Assembly (NCBI GenBank): GCA_030019485.1
Contig: JASEEW010000002.1
Coordinates: 1-32,249 of the forward strand
Direction of reading: 5' to 3'
Source of the DNA: Thermoplasmatales archaeon
Lineage (GTDB): Archaea; Thermoplasmatota; JASEFT01; JAUWIS01
DNA: 32,249 nucleotides
Made by a program: the position numbers and the translations under genes. A model generated the notes under the pieces. That model made no database searches, was not told the DNA's origin, and was given only the letters and a program-made list of their open reading frames with translations. Positions 12,156-19,485 of this stretch are shown here, one piece after another; positions within the stretch are counted from its first letter, which is position 1, and every line of letters starts with the position of its first letter.

Positions 12156-14738
12156 CTATAATGTTTTTAACTCTTCCTCCACTTCCTTAATCTTTTCTAT
12201 GTTGTCTAACTGTTTGTATGTTGTTAAAGCATGACCGAAGTATTCTTTTGCCTTATTTCTTTCCCCTTTCGACTTGTGCATTTTCCCATACTCAAAGTAT
12301 ATCTGGGATAAAAACTCGATGTCTTTGTTTTCTTCAGCCATGCTCATAGACCTTTTGAAATGCGATGTTGCCAGCTCCCATTTTTTTCTGTTTCTGTGTA
12401 TTATACCGTAGTTCAAATGGCATTGTGTAAGCATCCTTTTTTCATCAAGGCGTTCAAAAATCTTTAATGCCTTATCTGTGTAATCTATTGCTTTATCCAG
12501 CATCCCTTTCCTTGTATATCCCTCTGCTGCATTGCTCATCCCGTAACCGGTCATTCTCACATCACCAATTTCATTGCTGATTTTTATACATTTCTCATAC
12601 CATTCTATTGACCTGTCAATATCTTTCTTTCCATCATAAACTGCGCCAAGGTTGTTATATATTTTTGCAATTTCATGTTTGTCCCCTGTTTTGTCTGCAG
12701 CGTCAAGCGCTTTCATCATTATTTCAATACCTTTATCATATCCTCCTTTCGACCAGTATGCAACACCCATTGTTCTGTATGTTTTTACCATCAGTGATAT
12801 GTCACCAATCTTCTGGCAGAAGTCAAGGCATAGTTTAAAGTTGTTCATTGCGTCATCAATCTTTCCTTTGCGCAGATGCACGACCCCCATCCCGTAGTAT
12901 GCATCCGCTGCACCGTGAACATCGTTGATTTTCTTTGAAATTTTTAAAGCATGGTTTAGATTTTTTAGCGCTTCATCATATTTCCCCCTTGGAAAACAGA
13001 TTTTTGCTATACCAAGGTATGCCTCAACACTCTCCTTTTCATCACCAGCAGCAAATTCCAGTAATAGTTTGTAATACCTCAATGAGTCATCCCATTTTCC
13101 CATGACCTCAGAGGCTTTTCCTTTAAGGAGCAATATGGGTAAACGCTGTTTTTGAAACTGTTTTTCATCAAGTTCTTTTAATATATGCATAAACCCCTCT
13201 GCATACCCTGATTTTATGATACTAAAACCGTTTTCAACAGCAGTTTCTCCAGCCTTTTCGTTGTTTTCTGCTTTAAGAAGATGGTGCATGTATTCAATTC
13301 TAGCATCTTCACCTTTCTCATTTTCATAGTATTCTGCCGCAATGCCATGATAATATTTTTTATGTTTTAGGTTCAGTCTGCTGTAGCAGAAATCCCTGAG
13401 AATCTCGTGGATGCCATAAATGTTGTCCAGTCTTTGAAGCAATGATTTTTCTGTAAGACTGTCTATTGTGTCATAATCTATGTCCTCGACAAGCAATGCC
13501 CTTGGATAAAAAGGGTACCTGAACACTGATGCAATTTCAAGCACCTTCCTCTCAGGTTCATTTAGTCTTTTAAAGATTTCATCCCTCAAAAACTCCTCAG
13601 CCTCAATTGCTGTTTCTGGTGATATCAGTTCCAGCATAAGTGGATGTCCTTTTGTCAAAGAATAAAGTTTATCCAAATCTTTTTTTATTCCTCTGTGCAT
13701 AAGCAGTTTTTCACTGCTTCTTTTATCAAGCTCCTTTAATTTCATTTCCAATATATTTTTTTTCACAACAGCATCCTTCCTGCCGTAAAATGATGGAATA
13801 CTCCTGCCTATTACAATTGTTTTTGAACCTGTTCCCAGCTCCTTAAACGAGGAGAAGAAATCAACCACTCTTTTGTTTGCATTTTCAAAATTGTCAAACA
13901 CAAGTAGCATGTTTTCATTCATTTCCTCCTCCAAAAGTATCATTATTTCCTCAATTTTAACCTCCCAGATTTCCATGTAACTCCTCAGTTTTTCCTTCCC
14001 AATTTTTGAAAGAAACTTTGACAGCTTTGCAAGCATGCCTTCCAGTGTGCTGAAAGGATAAAACCTGTGCCAGAAAACATTTCCTTTACATCCTTCTAAA
14101 ACCTTTGACACAACAGCAGTCTTGCCAACACCCGCGATGCCTTTGATAACAAGAATCCCTGCCCCTGACTCTATGAAGTTTGATATTTCCTTTAACTCTT
14201 CTTCCCTTCCAACAAAATATTTAACCTCAGGTTTTCTCTCAGAAAAATTAACCTCTTTTTTAATCTCAAGAACATCCTCCAAATCAAGAAAATCATCAGG
14301 CAGAATATGTTTCAACACGTTTGTATGATTTATTTCCATTTTTCCTTTAGATTTTTTTTTCAGATAATCAACTACTTCTCCTATTTTCATCTCTCTAATC
14401 CTGTTTTTCTCCCTAACATTTAAGGTTTTTTTATCAACTTCCTTTTTTAATTCCTTTGCTTTCATAATACCATCGGATGTAAGGAAATAAAAACTTCTGA
14501 ATCTGCCTGTCTCAAGGAGATGAAAACGCTTTTCCTCAATTAATCCCTCTTTTTTAAGAAGTTTTAATCCCTCTGAAACAAGCCTGTGTGAAATATTTCC
14601 CTCCTCCTCCATCCCAGACTGGGAGAAAACAAGCACGGGTTTTGAAGAAAGCTGCTCGTTTATGTGATCATGCAAAAGAATAAGGATTTTCTCCCTGCCA
14701 GAGAGCTTGAGCATAAAAGTAAAACAGCATTTCTGCAT
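12156..14738 (-). CDS. Winged-helix (wHTH) plus STAND/NB-ARC-like NTPase plus TPR-repeat protein (860 aa)
   Basis: The N-terminus is LSGREKILILL...ISHRLVSEGLKLLKKEGLIEEKR...YFLTSDG (wHTH). Further motifs are FVGREEELKEI, Walker A GIAGVGKT, Walker B MLLVFDNF and a GxP motif TKGHPLMLELI. The C-terminal region of about 320 aa consists of TPR-like repeats. Confidence 0.85.
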   Translation of the reverse strand: MQKCCFTFMLKLSGREKILILLHDHINEQLSSKPVLVFSQSGMEEEGNISHRLVSEGLKLLKKEGLIEEKRFHLLETGRFRSFYFLTSDGIMKAKELKKEVDKKTLNVREKNRIREMKIGEVVDYLKKKSKGKMEINHTNVLKHILPDDFLDLEDVLEIKKEVNFSERKPEVKYFVGREEELKEISNFIESGAGILVIKGIAGVGKTAVVSKVLEGCKGNVFWHRFYPFSTLEGMLAKLSKFLSKIGKEKLRSYMEIWEVKIEEIMILLEEEMNENMLLVFDNFENANKRVVDFFSSFKELGTGSKTIVIGRSIPSFYGRKDAVVKKNILEMKLKELDKRSSEKLLMHRGIKKDLDKLYSLTKGHPLMLELISPETAIEAEEFLRDEIFKRLNEPERKVLEIASVFRYPFYPRALLVEDIDYDTIDSLTEKSLLQRLDNIYGIHEILRDFCYSRLNLKHKKYYHGIAAEYYENEKGEDARIEYMHHLLKAENNEKAGETAVENGFSIIKSGYAEGFMHILKELDEKQFQKQRLPILLLKGKASEVMGKWDDSLRYYKLLLEFAAGDEKESVEAYLGIAKICFPRGKYDEALKNLNHALKISKKINDVHGAADAYYGMGVVHLRKGKIDDAMNNFKLCLDFCQKIGDISLMVKTYRTMGVAYWSKGGYDKGIEIMMKALDAADKTGDKHEIAKIYNNLGAVYDGKKDIDRSIEWYEKCIKISNEIGDVRMTGYGMSNAAEGYTRKGMLDKAIDYTDKALKIFERLDEKRMLTQCHLNYGIIHRNRKKWELATSHFKRSMSMAEENKDIEFLSQIYFEYGKMHKSKGERNKAKEYFGHALTTYKQLDNIEKIKEVEEELKTL

Positions 14739-14749
14739 AAAAAGGTTTC

Positions 14750-14801
14750 AGGGTAACATTAGGGTAACATTAGGGTAACATCAGGGTTCATGCTTATATA
14801 A
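14750..14801. repeat. Four tandem 11-bp direct repeats (AGGGTAACATT, AGGGTAACATT, AGGGTAACATC, AGGGTTCATGC) directly abutting a palindromic TATA-like element TTATATAA (14794-14801). This is a likely operator/iteron in the divergent promoter region.
   Basis: Read directly: units start at 14750, 14761, 14772 and 14783. They lie 12-55 bp upstream of the ATG (14736-14738) of the wHTH-STAND gene. Confidence 0.6.
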
Positions 14802-14958
14802 CCCAAATTACAAAGTAGTTTCCGGTGATGAAAATGCAGAACATAAATAAAAAAACGGAACAGGATATTGCCAGAGAGGCTGTTTGGATAGCATCCCTTG
14901 TCTGGGAAATGCAGCACAACACAGACCCCAGAATCCATGTTTATACAGGGGTGATGAT

Positions 14959-16449
14959 ATGAACAGTGAACCTGTTTATGCGCAAATAATGAGGGAAAGA
15001 AAACATCAGAAAACATGGGCCGGTATTGTGGTTTTTTTCGTTGTGCTCTGGGTAGTCATGACACTGGTTGCACTTTACACATGGAGCTCTGGTTTCATGA
15101 CCGCAACTTCTGGTGGTGCGGGTGCGCCAACCTGGTACAAGCAGGAGGTACCTGCTGAGCCTAAAAGCATGGTGATAGGGGCTGTGCTTGACTGCGGGTA
15201 TGTGAGAATAGAGGATAAGCAAGTACCTATATATACCCTGCATTACAATGCCGAATTTATATACAGAAATACAAATACTGAAAAAGCGTATATTCCTCTG
15301 CCCAGCGGCTCTGTTGAAAACCTTGCTGTGAAGCTAAATAATGTTTTAATCCAGCCAAATATTCAGTCACACAAAATAGTGCTGGACCTGCCTGCCGGTG
15401 AGAACACTGTGTATATATCATATACTACAAGAGGCTCATACGAGTATTCCCATTCAGTGCCAAAGGACAGACTCATGGAAAAGTTTTACATGAAACTTGA
15501 AATTAAAAATATAAAATACGATAGAAATTTACCAAGCGAATGCCTAGAGCCTGATAAAGAGTACATATCAGATGGGAATACTGTGTTTGAGTGGGATAAA
15601 AAGGATGCTGTTCTCAGGAAGGAGATAATAGTCGAACTACCTGAATGGAAAAACCCGTTTGACACGTATTTATCACTGCTCCCTTGGATATTCCTCCTGT
15701 TATTCCTCCTTGGTTTGTTCTACTATGAGGCATTCAGGAGAACAAATATGCAGTTGAACATTGAATCCTTTGGATTCCTGATAGTGCCGTTCATACTACT
15801 GATGCTCTCAGTACCTGCCCTTGTTGTTTACATAGATGTGGAATATGCTGTAGGTTTTTCCATAATATTTGCTGTTGCAGCAATGTTTGTGATAAAGAAA
15901 AAGGTTCTCATGGTAACAAAAGCATTCCTTGATATTTTCCTCCTTCCCGCACTTGCATTAATTTCTGTCTGCACGTTTGTTACTGTTTCAGCACCATACG
16001 GCGGAACAATTGGAATAATATGCATTATCTTATCAGTCCTAGTCGGTGTTAAATTCTTCAAGGAGAATAAGGGCCCAAAGGAAAAAATATCCATTGACAG
16101 CATCCTGACAAAAATCCAGTCATTGTCCGATGAAAAAAAACAGGTTGAAACAGTGCTGGAAAATGAGAGAAAGGAAAAGGAGCTCCTGAAAGAAAGAATA
16201 AAGAAAGGCGTGTTCGCAAAAAATTTCTGCCTCTACTGCAAATCCATTGTGAAACCAGATTTTGACTTCTGCCCAAAATGCGGAAAGGAGATAAAGTACA
16301 TAGAAAAATGTGAAAAATGCGGCTCACTTGTTCATTCTGAAATCGGCTTATACTGCCCTAACTGCGGTGAACCTTTAAAGAAAGGGTTAAATGCAGGTAT
16401 GAACCTTGCTTTTATGGAGGGAGACTATGGCAGAGCTGGAGAAATGTAA
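14959..16449 (+). CDS. Multi-pass membrane protein (1 TM, extracytoplasmic domain of about 210 aa, 5 TM) with a cytoplasmic coiled coil and a C-terminal double zinc ribbon
   Basis: The start is set at ATG 14959 (MNSEPVYAQ), preceded by GGTGAT at 14949-14954. Hydrophobic segments are WAGIVVFFVVLWVVMTLVALY, LLPWIFLLLFLLGLFYY, FGFLIVPFILLMLSVPALVVY, AVGFSIIFAVAAMFVI, IFLLPALALISVCTFVTV and IGIICIILSVLVGV. The zinc ribbons are CLYCKS...CPKCG and CEKCGS...CPNCG. Confidence 0.8.
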   Translation: MNSEPVYAQIMRERKHQKTWAGIVVFFVVLWVVMTLVALYTWSSGFMTATSGGAGAPTWYKQEVPAEPKSMVIGAVLDCGYVRIEDKQVPIYTLHYNAEFIYRNTNTEKAYIPLPSGSVENLAVKLNNVLIQPNIQSHKIVLDLPAGENTVYISYTTRGSYEYSHSVPKDRLMEKFYMKLEIKNIKYDRNLPSECLEPDKEYISDGNTVFEWDKKDAVLRKEIIVELPEWKNPFDTYLSLLPWIFLLLFLLGLFYYEAFRRTNMQLNIESFGFLIVPFILLMLSVPALVVYIDVEYAVGFSIIFAVAAMFVIKKKVLMVTKAFLDIFLLPALALISVCTFVTVSAPYGGTIGIICIILSVLVGVKFFKENKGPKEKISIDSILTKIQSLSDEKKQVETVLENERKEKELLKERIKKGVFAKNFCLYCKSIVKPDFDFCPKCGKEIKYIEKCEKCGSLVHSEIGLYCPNCGEPLKKGLNAGMNLAFMEGDYGRAGEM

Positions 16450-19021
16450 GTACAGGGTCATAGGTGTGAAAGGCATATTCTGCTCAGGCGGAAGTACCGA
16501 GAAAGAAATGGTTGATGTGAAAACCTGCTCCACATGCATGATTCCTTCACTGGCAGAAGAAATAAACTGTGTTTTCCTTGATGCAAGAAGAATCATGGAA
16601 AGCACGCTTCCCGGCGTTGTCAGGGAAATGCACAGCTACCATATGACATGTGCGCTCGGCAATGAATTGAAACTCACAAACAAGGGGATTTGCATGAAAT
16701 GCCCTAACAGACGCAAGGCTGTACAGCCTGATATTAGATCAGACTTTGTGGGAAGAGGAAACGAACTTGCGGAACTAAAAAAATATCTGGGGCTCATGCT
16801 CAGCCACAATGGAAACACTGTAATGGTAAGCGGTGAGCTTGGTGCTGGAAAAACAAGGCTTGTTAATGAGCTGAAAAAATATGCTATTATGCGCAATGTA
16901 AGATTTTTGAATGGCAGAGCTCTTTATGCTGAGAAGCTGACACCCTACCTTCCGTTTAAGGAAATACTCAGGGCATATGTTGATGAAATGAAAAAATCTG
17001 GGAGCACCTCAGCAATCAATGATATTCTATCTGCAGGAGAAATATCTGAGCTTTTACCTCTGGGTTTGCCGTCAGGCTCTGCTTTAAAAACAAAGGATGT
17101 TCAAATTGGAAGGGAAAGAATGTTTGAGGCTTTCTACAATGCTATCGTAAAAATGGCTGAGGAAAAACCATTGATACTGTTTGTGGATGACCTGCAGTAT
17201 GCTGATACTGCCTCACTGCATCTTCTTCACTACCTTTCAAGAAACATTAAGAACAGCAGAATCATGCTCATAGGCGCATATCGTCCTGAGGAGATAGTAA
17301 ATGCTGATAACCCGCTTTCTGAGACTCTTGGGAGAATGGATACTGAGCGTTTGTATCATACCATAGAAGTAAAGAGACTCAATGTAGATGATGTGAAGGA
17401 AATGATAGGCTCTATAACTGACAAGGGTGTAGATGATGATTTCATAGATTTCATTTACGATAAAACAAACGGCAACCCTTTGTTTGTTGAGGAAATCATT
17501 AAATCCTCTGATAAAATGCAAAAAACACCTGACACAATAACGGATTTGATTAACAGGAGAATCGAGAGGTTAGGTCAAGAGGTCATAAATGTACTATCAT
17601 ATGCCGCAGTAATAGGTAGCAAATTCTCCTATGATACACTGCGGGATGCATCCAGTATTGATGAGGAAAAAATTGTTGGAATTCTAGAGTCTTTAATAAA
17701 ACTTAGAGTAATATATGAGGAGCCTACCATTCTAGGGCTTTACTATTTTAATCCCCCTATAATAAAAGAGGTTGTGTATACTGGTTTGAGTGAAAAAAGG
17801 GCAGAGCTGCTGCATAAAAGGGTTGGGGGCGCACTTGAATCCTGCAGGGAGAAAAACCTTGGCGTTCTTGCGTACCATTTTTCAAAAGCAAGGGAATATG
17901 GGAAGGCACTGCATTATTCTGAATCTGCTGGGGACAAAGCAGTTTTGTCGTTTGCTCCGAATGAGGCAATGAAGTACTATGAAACAGCATTAAACTCATT
18001 TGAAAAACTTGACGGAAAAACCTCTGAAAAAACAGGACTGCTGAGCAAGCTAGGGCAGGTGTATTTCACGGTTGGGGAATTTGATAAATCAATAGAAACA
18101 TATGAAAAACAGATAGCACTCTGCATAAGCTCGGATGACAAAAAACCTTTGGCAAAAGCATACAGAGCGGTTGGTGAAATCCATGCCATAAGGGAGGAAT
18201 GGAAAAAATCATTGGAGTACTACAGTGCAGGCATGCAGGTCTCTGAAAAAATAAAAGACACACTTGGCATGGCTGAGGCGAAGAGGGGGATAGGGATGGT
18301 TTACTGCAGGGCAGGCAAATACAATGAGGCGCTACTGTGGCTTAAACAGAGCCTGAACAACAATGAGCCCTCGCTTACGGCGCACATCAGGATGGACATT
18401 GGAACGGTTTACTGGTACCTTGGAAGGTATGAGGAGGCTGTTGAAAACTATGAAAGAAGTCTGAAATATTTTGAGGAAAAAAACAACAAGCCCATGGTTT
18501 TGAGGGCTATGATAAACACTGGTGTGGTGTACACAAAAAAGGGTGAGCCAGAAAAGGCAATCGCCTGCTATGAGAAGGCTGCTGGGCTGTCAAAAACAAC
18601 TGGTGAGCTCAGGCTTAATGGTTATGCGCTGTCAAATGCTGCGGAGGAACTTATCAAAACAGGAAATATAGAAAAGGCGCTGGATTATTCTAAAAAATCA
18701 ATGGAAATATTTGAAAAAATAGGCGAGAAGCACATGATTGCAAACACACACATGGTTTACGGCATCGCATACAAATGCAGAAAGGAATGGGGAAAATCAG
18801 AGGAGCATTTCAGAAAAGGAATCCAGACAGCAGAGGAAGCGCATGATTTGGATATGCTCTCCCAGAATTACATGCAGTATGCCCTCATGCATAAAGAAAA
18901 AGGCGACATTAAGAATGCATTAAAATGTTTTCAGAAAACAGTGGAAACATGCAAAAAACTTGGAAGCAGGGAGCTGATGGAAAAAGCAGAAAAGGAAATT
19001 GAAAAACTGGGATGTGAATAA
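16427..19021 (+). CDS. Cys-rich N-terminal domain plus AAA_16-type STAND NTPase plus TPR-repeat protein (about 864 aa)
   Basis: The start is set at ATG 16427 (MAELEKCKY), preceded by GGAGGG. It overlaps the upstream gene by 23 nt. Motifs are FVGRGNELAEL, Walker A GELGAGKT and Walker B LILFVDDLQYAD. The C-terminal TPR module is visibly paralogous to that of the 12156-14738 protein. Confidence 0.85.
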   Translation: MAELEKCKYRVIGVKGIFCSGGSTEKEMVDVKTCSTCMIPSLAEEINCVFLDARRIMESTLPGVVREMHSYHMTCALGNELKLTNKGICMKCPNRRKAVQPDIRSDFVGRGNELAELKKYLGLMLSHNGNTVMVSGELGAGKTRLVNELKKYAIMRNVRFLNGRALYAEKLTPYLPFKEILRAYVDEMKKSGSTSAINDILSAGEISELLPLGLPSGSALKTKDVQIGRERMFEAFYNAIVKMAEEKPLILFVDDLQYADTASLHLLHYLSRNIKNSRIMLIGAYRPEEIVNADNPLSETLGRMDTERLYHTIEVKRLNVDDVKEMIGSITDKGVDDDFIDFIYDKTNGNPLFVEEIIKSSDKMQKTPDTITDLINRRIERLGQEVINVLSYAAVIGSKFSYDTLRDASSIDEEKIVGILESLIKLRVIYEEPTILGLYYFNPPIIKEVVYTGLSEKRAELLHKRVGGALESCREKNLGVLAYHFSKAREYGKALHYSESAGDKAVLSFAPNEAMKYYETALNSFEKLDGKTSEKTGLLSKLGQVYFTVGEFDKSIETYEKQIALCISSDDKKPLAKAYRAVGEIHAIREEWKKSLEYYSAGMQVSEKIKDTLGMAEAKRGIGMVYCRAGKYNEALLWLKQSLNNNEPSLTAHIRMDIGTVYWYLGRYEEAVENYERSLKYFEEKNNKPMVLRAMINTGVVYTKKGEPEKAIACYEKAAGLSKTTGELRLNGYALSNAAEELIKTGNIEKALDYSKKSMEIFEKIGEKHMIANTHMVYGIAYKCRKEWGKSEEHFRKGIQTAEEAHDLDMLSQNYMQYALMHKEKGDIKNALKCFQKTVETCKKLGSRELMEKAEKEIEKLGCE

Positions 19022-19022
19022 C

Positions 19023-19112
19023 ATGAGTAAGAAAAGGAAAATGATGATAGGGGTTGCGGTGGTGGTAGCAGGGATTTTGATAGGGGGTGTTATTTATATC
19101 TGTTGGAAATAA
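19023..19112 (+). CDS. Possible 29-aa single-TM peptide (MSKKRKMMIGVAVVVAGILIGGVIYICWK). Alternatively it is the frameshifted N-terminus of the next ORF.
   Basis: The ATG lies one nt after the STAND-TPR stop. The peptide has a basic N-terminus and then a hydrophobic helix. Confidence 0.4.
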   Translation: MSKKRKMMIGVAVVVAGILIGGVIYICWK

Positions 19113-19485
19113 CACTACCTGGGAAGGGACTCTCACTCTTGCAGAAGATCAGGCTGTGTTTGAGTGGACCATAAAATCTGTCAAAGTTGGAAATTGGTCA
19201 ATGTTCGTAGAAATAGATTGGAACTATACTTGCTCCAAGTTAAACCCAGACGATCCTCGATACACAGGGCACCATTATGAAAAATCTCACGCTCTGGATA
19301 TATCGGTTTCAGAAAACTCTGCATACATAAATGAAACACCCTTCCTATAATATAAACCATCTACACAACAAGAATTCAACGAAACATGCACACCAGCACC
19401 ACAATCACCTATAGTAGTTGTTGTAGTGGCGCTAACCTCAATCATCGGAATAACTATGTTATTAAAGAGAAAAAAGAAGGGATAA
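19087..19485 (+). pseudogene. Small extracytoplasmic-domain protein with a C-terminal TM anchor, interrupted by an in-frame TAA (19348-19350) and out of frame with its likely signal-anchor (19023-19112)
   Basis: The frame reads ...SAYINETPFL*YKPSTQQEFNETCTPAPQSPIVVVVVALTSIIGITMLLKRKKKG*. The N-terminal TM segment lies in a different frame upstream. Confidence 0.4.

Follow-up and report, generated by a model that had tools for sequence, protein, structure and literature searches.

Introduction

Two large STAND proteins, each ending in a tetratricopeptide repeat (TPR) module, are encoded head to head on either side of a membrane protein gene in a Thermoplasmatales archaeon, and the question that this locus raises is whether the arrangement serves antiviral defence or the regulation of genes. 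The DNA analysed is a 32,249-nt stretch of contig JASEEW010000002.1 (assembly GCA_030019485.1), here called the window; the locus occupies its positions 12,156-19,485, with gene A on the minus strand and genes S1, B and C on the plus strand. A sequence-only reading had described the two STAND proteins as a paralogous pair flanking a membrane double-zinc-ribbon protein, had compared them with AfsR-type regulators, Avs-type defence sensors and paired nucleotide-binding leucine-rich repeat receptors (NLRs), and had thought a transcriptional switch, sensing a ligand and tied to a component in the membrane, at least as likely as a defence system.

The answer that we favour, at a little better than even confidence, is a chromosomal signal-transduction module in which A would bind a set of intergenic repeats and control S1, B and C, with B as the membrane input, and which would not be a defence system. 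The preference for a switch over defence is supported by the match of A to the archaeal protein PH0952, by the profile of its winged helix-turn-helix (wHTH), by a PADLOC search and by the syntenic housekeeping context. Our searches of the literature turned up no paper on the module, on B, on S1 or on the operator.

The STAND protein A

The open reading frame (ORF) of A spans 12156-14738 on the minus strand and codes for 860 aa, as had been noted before; its start, however, is better placed at 14714 (MLKLSGREK...), a start shared by all orthologues, which gives a gene at 12156-14714 and a protein of 852 aa. The architecture that the sequence-only reading assigned to it, a wHTH followed by an NTPase and TPRs, is sound: the motifs GIAGVGKT, LLVFDNF and GHPL can be read in the translation, and Pfam agrees, with ATPase_2 at 34 bits, AAA_16 at 31.6 bits and strong TPR matches. 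A winged-helix DNA-binding (effector) domain covers residues 1-95 (14430-14714, minus strand) by its family profile. The nucleotide-binding oligomerization domain (NOD), with P-loop GIAGVGKT, Walker B LLVFDNF, GHPL and a winged helix, covers residues 159-455 (13350-14240, minus strand). The C-terminal TPR sensor module takes up residues ~504-852 (12159-13205, minus strand) and is matched by TPR_12 at 1.1e-37 in four stretches, plus TPR_2/8/1.

Residues 159-455 match PH0952 of Pyrococcus horikoshii (PDB 6MFV, chain A, residues 7-301) with E=4.6e-28 in a phmmer search of PDB. PH0952 has been predicted to be a transcription factor and carries an ArsR-like effector at its N-terminus and a sensor made of TPRs (PMC6468293); the two proteins have the same three-part architecture and homologous NODs. 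An 11-member profile of A-family N-termini matches the structures of PadR, MarR/MepR, ZitR and ArsR at E values from 7e-5 to 1e-2, and HTH_Crp_2 or MarR_2 is matched individually by 8 of the 11 members. From the NOD match to 6MFV, the winged-helix family profile and the TPR sensor together, we assign A to the PH0952-like class of archaeal STAND transcription factors as a new member. It differs from PH0952 in its setting and in some details. No operator, target or partner is known for PH0952, whereas the A locus has a conserved putative operator of 11-bp repeats, a divergent operon as its likely target and a candidate membrane partner; and A orthologues linked to B have D-N or D-S in Walker B rather than D-D/E, and some of them have a DUF835 insertion.

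In the window the Walker B in question lies at about 13870-13890 (LLVFDNF); D-N is found in the window, L001, L003 and P0115, D-S in L006 and D-D in more distant A-family members (L and P numbers denote loci and proteins of our comparison set). The change in the B-linked orthologues may mean slow or absent ATP hydrolysis. The DUF835 insertion is found in the A orthologues of L001 (3460-6516, minus strand) and L003 (671-3727, minus strand), which are 1018 aa long, with DUF835 between wHTH and NOD; they have the same wHTH as the A of the window, with NOD and TPR parts 54-61% identical (57-58% for the TPR module). DUF835 is classed as an inactivated KaiC that serves archaeal response regulators as a signalling output domain (PMC5847659), and its insertion fits a signalling role of the A family.

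Two more distant A-family loci may be recorded here. At L075 (5606-8194) an A homologue, P0117, 50% identical, is split in two ORFs, the last TPR module forming a 229-aa ORF of its own; large FG-GAP/CARDB surface proteins adjoin it, B is missing, and GTAAC-N5-GTAAA stands upstream. At L076 (4531-9961) an A-type protein of 540 aa, with wHTH and NOD but no TPRs, is encoded tail to tail with an AAA_16-TPR protein of 900 aa, which is 34% identical to C, has an insertion of ~150 aa between Walker A and Walker B and is followed by a TPR-small GTPase fusion.

The putative intergenic operator and its promoters

Between A and the divergent genes lies a putative operator at 14750-14793 (plus strand), made of direct repeats at an 11-bp period: 3.5 copies of AGGGTAACATT at 14750-14787, for which Tandem Repeats Finder gives a score of 69 and 96% matches, and a degenerate fourth unit, AGGGTTCATGC. 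The repeat pattern of AGGGTAACATT has a single occurrence in the window, where 0.16 would be expected. The degenerate unit directly adjoins a putative TATA box of S1-B-C, TTATATA at 14794-14800 (plus strand), and this is followed by the conserved stretch AATTACAAA, a GGTGA ribosome-binding site and the start codon. On the other side a TATA-like TTTTTAT at 14737-14743 (minus strand), ~26 nt upstream of the A ATG, is the putative promoter of A; the element, CATAAAAA, is conserved in an alignment of four loci with a divergent A (the window, L006, L001 and the L003a copy). Its distance to the ATG and this conservation suggest that the A transcript is leaderless and comes from a back-to-back promoter. 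Transcription is predicted to start near 14714 on the minus strand and at about 14820 on the plus strand. An Rfam scan found nothing anywhere in the window, and so no known RNA element in the intergenic cassette, and a scan for sigma-70 promoters and terminators, which is not applicable to archaea, gave counts at chance level.

The cassette is kept as a whole upstream of S1 in loci where B is only 43-47% identical, and GTAAC-N6-GTAAC is invariant in the 7/7 promoter copies aligned. We scanned the 74 fetched comparison loci (~700 kb) for the pattern GTAAC-N6-GTAACRT: it occurs 13 times, in 9/74 loci, each time in the cassette before genes of the module. Second copies of the cassette precede accessory units in L003, L009 and L010, and in L003 the cassette is duplicated together with S1. 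The accessory genes, found at L003 3972-4512, L009 86-615, L010 102-251 and L001 6760-6912, with the cassette upstream in the first three, encode a 49-50-aa zinc-ribbon protein with four Cys (MCPWC[RK]KPTV...C..CGYY[RK]Y) and a transmembrane (TM) protein of ~120 aa whose helical tail is charged. These genes are absent from the window.

The repeats and A appear to vary together. In the orthologues that keep the repeats (the window, L006, L001 and L003) A has a nearly invariant recognition helix and wing (ISHRLVSEGLK ... GRFRSFYFLT); in L002 both differ, and no GTAAC repeat was found, either in the two short intergenic stretches read there or by the pattern scan. A role for A as transcription factor of the S1-B-C operon is moderately well supported.

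The arrangement recalls AfsR and the other large SARPs (Streptomyces antibiotic regulatory proteins), to which the architecture had been likened. AfsR protomers bind the afs box, two 11-bp direct repeats, side by side (PMC10936776). A likewise has a DNA-binding winged helix, a NOD and TPRs in one protein, and its locus has direct repeats at an 11-bp period beside a core promoter element; the logic of phased repeats by a promoter is thus shared, as a functional analogy only. The likeness stops at the domains. Neither PF00486 nor PF03704 has a Pfam match in A or C, and the match of NCBIfam AfsR covers the TPR part only, at 66 bits against a cut-off of 1430. Without an OmpR-type or BTAD domain A is rejected as a SARP; it has instead a wHTH of the MarR/PadR/ArsR type, an archaeal TATA box and BRE (TFB recognition element) rather than a sigma-70 promoter, and a gene for a membrane partner.

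Conservation of the module

Within the close relatives, where B is 73-81% identical to that of the window (L020-23, L006 and L007/8), genes A, S1, B and C occur together in the same chromosomal neighbourhood (methyltransferase, HAD, ... YaaH, GNAT, ThrRS). In L001 and L003, with B at 44% and 61% identity, the A orthologue is divergent from B and C is missing, and in L002, at 34%, a wHTH-NOD-TPR gene lies directly upstream of B. A adjoins B, or points away from it, in L001, L002, L003, L006 and L020-23. From this linkage across diverged loci we take A, S1 and B to be the conserved core and C, present only in close relatives, to be a recent lineage-specific addition. The synteny of A, B and C as a triad thus holds among the close relatives (B at least 73% identical) and not across the B family, where the constant partners of B are A and S1.

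The genes flanking the module in the window are LarA, a methyltransferase, a HAD hydrolase, a cyclophilin-like gene, YaaH, GNAT and threonyl-tRNA synthetase (ThrRS), all syntenic in L020-23. More variable neighbours in the related loci are a beta-helix protein with a PGF-CTERM anchor (L006, L020-23), DUF2330-like proteins, a pilin-like protein, and PKD and fn3 proteins. These suggest, as a lead only, that the physiological signal may concern the cell surface.

The small gene S1

Directly upstream of B is a gene that the sequence-only reading did not list. S1, at 14828-14962 (plus strand; alternative start 14834), codes for ~44 aa, MKMQNINKKTEQDIAREAVWIASLVWEMQHNTDPRIHVYTGVMI, and its stop overlaps the ATG of B (ATGA). 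Homologues that share the motif A[RK]EA..[IVL]A.LV[WL]...[HS]N..PR.H[VA][YH] stand upstream of B in most of its loci, namely L006, L020-23, L001, L003 (two copies), L009 and L010. Pairwise differences at the first, second and third codon positions number 82/73/160; since S1 is conserved and its substitutions fall mostly at third positions, we regard it as a translated gene. It has no Pfam match.

In the close relatives L006 (2782-3894) and L020-23 (8895-10001 in L020) a gene for a secreted beta-helix (NosD-like) protein of 370 aa with a PGF-type C-terminal anchor stands between S1 and B. The window lacks precisely this gene and has S1 joined to B (14950-14962). The sequence GGTGATGA is present twice in the window, at the start of S1 (14824) and just before the B ATG (14950).

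TPR domains commonly bind short peptides or helices. It might therefore be supposed that S1 is the ligand of the TPRs in an intracellular peptide switch, with feedback on its own promoter, B having an unrelated role in the envelope. S1 is indeed the first gene after the operator, is conserved with a fixed motif (AREA..A.LVW..HN.NPR.HVY) and is duplicated together with the promoter cassette in L003. Yet no N-terminal signal peptide, export motif or TM segment can be read from its sequence, which sets it apart from the RRNPP regulators, whose adjacent small gene encodes an exported pro-peptide; no genes for processing or import lie nearby; and B is kept where S1 is missing or decayed (L002 and L004/L005, see below). 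We think this explanation improbable.

The membrane protein B

Gene B (14959-16449, plus strand) lies in an ORF of 14884-16449 and codes for 496 aa from a conserved ATG (MNSEP...) placed by orthologue alignment. Its parts are, on the plus strand, a first TM segment (TM1, about 15013-15081), a beta-sandwich ectodomain (15154-15636), five TM helices (15655-16065), a coiled-coil helix (16093-16203), a double zinc ribbon (16228-16368) and a C-terminal tail (16369-16446). The double zinc ribbon (DZR, PF12773) is matched in Pfam at 33.8 bits against a cut-off of 27.3, and its eight Cys are invariant across 13 aligned homologues. An AlphaFold2 (AF2) model made from these 13 homologues has a mean predicted local distance difference test score (pLDDT) of 66.6, and comprises an N-terminal helix, a confidently modelled all-beta ectodomain at 66-226 (pLDDT 80-90), the five helices of the TM region, another long one at 379-415 and the zinc ribbons. 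Model and Pfam match both agree with the 1+5-TM topology, coiled coil and two zinc ribbons first read from the letters.

The ectodomain has no Pfam match. Foldseek against PDB aligned B with pentameric ligand-gated channels (E about 1e-5, TM-score 0.11-0.20) and the N-domain of M1 aminopeptidase (TM about 0.2), and against BFVD it gave nothing significant for the ectodomain. We take both for generic matches of beta-sandwich or topology, and the channel scores for no match of fold.

In a search of 5.8 billion proteins the B family amounts to 13 clusters at 90% identity, all from Thermoplasmatota metagenome-assembled genomes, under no database name other than 'zinc ribbon domain-containing protein'; a JGI metagenome scan added four further true loci. 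An extra tail of ~23 residues after the zinc ribbons is found only in B copies with C downstream, and in bacteria a DZR is fused to the N-terminus of certain AAA_16 proteins (P0093-95, P0114). Both are weak hints of a link between the tail of B and STAND proteins.

Other observations concern the B family at large. The N-terminal TM segment AVIGVVLMVLITAVLAAVSYVWVSG of the homologues P0003-P0006 (residues ~20-50) resembles an archaeal type IV pilin class III signal; Pilin_N matches it with E=1.9e-4 and 22.7 bits, slightly below the cut-off. A gene for a Pilin_N protein adjoins B in L002. L004 has tandem B paralogues (3-521 and 754-2262), as does L005, and the upstream copy stops just before the zinc ribbons (...REKRFC*); a decayed S1 lies between the two copies.

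Protein C and the shared TPR module

Gene C (16427-19021, plus strand) begins at an ATG (MAELEK...) within an ORF of 16406-19021 and codes for a STAND protein of 864 aa. Its start lies before the B stop at 16449, which makes the 23-nt overlap already remarked on, and an overlap of about 20-23 nt is found wherever C occurs. The order of domains proposed earlier is right: a Cys-rich N-domain with 8 Cys (16427-16741), an AAA_16 NOD (about 16745-17836) with readable GELGAGKT, FVDDLQYAD and also GNPL, and a TPR module (about 17966-18991). Pfam gives AAA_16 at 87 bits (cut-off 32.6), TPR, and TPR_MalT at 50.6 bits (cut-off 45).

The relatives of C are widespread AAA_16-TPR proteins with N-termini as various as kinase, adenylate cyclase, SARP/BTAD, hydrolase, methyltransferase and DZR with cyclase. 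Residues 110-867 match the ATPase and TPR part of one such multidomain protein, the TOMM kinase/cyclase fusion TIGR03903, at 1e-50. C differs from these in its N-terminal module, a 105-aa domain with 8 Cys; beyond its own orthologues, the nearest relatives (P0015-P0021, about 35% identity) lack any such module. Pfam matched nothing in the first 108 aa even at E up to 1. On these searches the N-domain of C is an orphan, to which no recognised output domain (LuxR HTH, kinase, cyclase or BTAD) is assigned.

BLASTP of A against C aligns 529 aa at 28% identity (E=2e-54), in collinear order between the GxP motif (GHPL in A, GNPL in C) and the C-terminus. Because the alignment is collinear and takes in the helical region after the NTPase, the similarity goes beyond a generic TPR consensus, and the homology of the two TPR modules, claimed on sight, is upheld. 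So is the unrelatedness of the N-termini, which give no alignment (E>5). The P-loop domains do not align either (E=5.9). The description as a paralogous pair says too much, then; the NTPase cores belong to different families, PH0952/ATPase_2-like in A and AAA_16 in C, and the two genes are not local paralogues.

Over the last 300 residues A is 32% identical to C and 37% identical to P0015, an unlinked protein with a C-type NOD; C is 36% identical to P0015 and 33-36% identical to A orthologues, and more distant TPR-STANDs show 20-24%. That A and C came by their TPR modules through local duplication or through gene conversion is rejected, as unlinked TPRs are at least as similar. The signature [IV]R..GY.LSNA.E......G......Y..K...IFE.L.EK recurs in A, C, the P0015-type and the other TPR-STANDs compared. 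We conclude from these alignments that one type of TPR sensor module is common to two NOD families among the STANDs of Thermoplasmatota and is not exclusive to A and C.

The homology of the C-terminal halves could also be read as that of a sensor/helper pair, in which C senses and then activates the DNA-binding A through these halves, B being an anchor only. The extent of the A-C homology, the want of a recognisable output domain in C and the second, independent adjacency of A-type and C-type STANDs in L076 speak for such a pair. The P-loop cores, however, are of different families and not alignable, and mixed A/C rings are therefore unlikely; C is absent from most loci with B and A; C-type proteins are also found by themselves amid housekeeping genes (L012); and the TPR module is common to many unlinked STANDs. 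The earlier likeness to head-to-head paired NLRs fails as well, the NODs not being of one family and no local duplication having occurred. We judge a sensor/helper pair unlikely, if slightly less so than the peptide switch.

Defence or regulation

Among the STAND-TPR proteins there are antiviral Avs families, and clades with and without a defence role are intermingled (PMC13581612). An Avs-like explanation would have A, C or both sense a viral protein through the TPRs, with B disrupting the membrane or the wHTH arresting transcription. Besides the existence of Avs families, it can draw on the variable surroundings of the core, in which the beta-helix gene and a small downstream gene are present or absent, on the weak Foldseek match of B, as beta-sandwich with TM bundle, to ligand-gated channels, and on an A-family member in L011 that adjoins a HEPN gene. 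The searches went the other way. PADLOC returned generic TPR models and P-loop-only matches (E about 2e-3) and nothing else; Pfam and NCBIfam searches found no nuclease, protease, TIR or SIR2 domain, in accord with the earlier failure to recognise an enzymatic effector; tblastn of B found no phage or plasmid match; the channel TM-scores amount to no fold match; and the flanks are housekeeping genes, syntenic in relatives. A dedicated, conserved operator before the operon fits gene regulation. Defence as the main explanation was rejected on the PADLOC and tblastn results, and we give it the lowest probability of all the explanations considered, a very small one.

Proposed mechanism

STAND proteins are closed, ADP-bound and autoinhibited by arm and sensor at rest; an inducer opens them, ATP binds and a multimer forms (PMC6468293). 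If A behaves likewise, its TPR sensor and arm would hold the ADP-bound ATPase core closed until a trigger lets ADP be exchanged for ATP, and A would then multimerise. The N-terminal winged helices of the multimer would occupy the helically phased 11-bp repeats between the back-to-back TATA boxes; several winged helices in one multimer fit a row of sites along a single face of the DNA. A would thereby control the divergent S1-B-C, most likely by activation, as the sites lie directly upstream of BRE/TATA, and probably also its own leaderless promoter (autoregulation). Architectures, homologies, synteny and the conserved cis-element are observations; binding of A to DNA, the sign of its effect, contacts of B or S1 with the TPR modules and the physiological signal are inferred.

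B would be the membrane arm, with its extracytoplasmic beta-sandwich, five TM helices and cytoplasmic coiled coil and double zinc ribbon; it is built like a transmembrane receptor whose tail in the cytoplasm binds proteins. Its cytoplasmic tail, S1 or both may contact the TPR sensors and so gate the STAND switch, as MalK restrains MalT; for the contact itself we argue by this analogy. MalT of E. coli is held inactive by partner proteins, MalK and MalY (PMC10427625, PMC6468293), and Aes is a further inhibitor. The likeness is to a STAND activator gated by partners, one of which, MalK, comes from a membrane complex, and C scores above the cut-off of the MalT-like TPR model (50.6 vs 45). MalT differs in having a C-terminal LuxR HTH and a maltotriose-binding SUPR/TPR-like sensor, and B is unrelated to MalK. 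C, translationally coupled to B, would read the same input through the shared type of TPR module and lead to a second output.

In its fullest form the proposal would be an undescribed archaeal transmembrane pathway, with B and S1 gating two STAND families through one shared type of TPR, A acting on transcription and C through its Cys-rich domain. This extended form we put forward tentatively, as doubtful rather than probable. If it holds, the output domain of C would be Cys-rich and possibly bind metal or a redox cofactor.

The proposed signal-transduction module has a number of points to reckon with. The organisms are all uncultured and the module is known here from DNA sequence alone, in a small sample of ~10 loci from perhaps 5-6 independent lineages; a scan of 185,579 GTDB species representatives with the B alignment found no full-length B, only unrelated zinc-ribbon tails. 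L002 keeps A and B but has neither S1 nor the repeats, S1 has decayed in L004/L005 (ATA instead of ATG) where the repeats are degenerate, and A-family members without B exist (L011, L075, L076). The N-terminal 170 residues of the A of the window have no Pfam match by themselves. The fold check of the extracytoplasmic domain of B by AF2 and Foldseek returned generic beta-sandwich matches only. For C, an exhaustive phmmer search of 1.84 billion representatives with the 105-aa, 8-Cys N-domain found no relatives beyond one cluster at 50% identity, and the AF2 model of this domain from a 2-sequence alignment is unusable (pLDDT 31). Three further phmmer matches of the domain were set aside as spurious, being SpaA repeats, RanBP zinc fingers and a low-complexity repeat.

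Some of these points could be taken to mean that the adjacency is incidental, A, B and C being independent and the repeats serving another regulator. There are many STAND-TPR proteins in these genomes, and, as a further point for the proposed module to reckon with, the operator cassette stands in L009 and L010 where no A gene can be seen, though on contigs of only 3.8-5.1 kb. Incidental adjacency is opposed by the A-B linkage, kept while B identity falls to 35-62% and in two gene orientations, by the operator, which always adjoins genes of the module, and by the conserved start-stop overlap of B and C. We consider chance adjacency quite improbable, less so than antiviral defence and more so than the peptide switch.

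Downstream gene and other repeats

One nucleotide after the C stop a 29-codon ORF with an N-terminal TM anchor begins (19023-19112, plus strand). It had been taken for a tiny TM peptide; the position was given correctly, but it is no independent peptide. Three-frame translation shows it to be the first fragment of a disrupted small gene of ~150 codons at 19023-19485 (plus strand), with one frameshift and one in-frame stop. The body continues in the +1 frame for ~90 aa with five N-x-S/T sequons (N-glycosylation), is interrupted by an in-frame TAA at 19348-19350 and ends in a C-terminal TM anchor with a basic KRKKKG tail. The homologue in L006 stays in frame beyond the TM segment, and the gene is absent from L020-22. 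The disruption could be that of a pseudogene or an assembly error.

Elsewhere in the window a tandem repeat at 73-234 (69-nt period, 2.4 copies, 77% matches) is unrelated to the module.

Significance

Large STAND-type transcription factors are widespread in archaea, and PH0952, the structural model of a TPR sensor, is still only a putative regulator (PMC6468293); we found no report in the literature of a target or inducer for any of them. What is new in this STAND transcription-factor module is the architecture of its operator and the set of its partners. Its reach is limited by its rarity and by its being known only from uncultured lineages. Three unannotated protein families or domains are documented with it, namely B, S1 and the Cys-rich domain of C. 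The locus supplies a testable set, consisting of a candidate phased-repeat operator by an archaeal TATA box, a target operon, and candidate inputs in B and S1; if the extended pathway is true, A would be the first STAND regulator of archaea for which operator, regulon and input are all defined.

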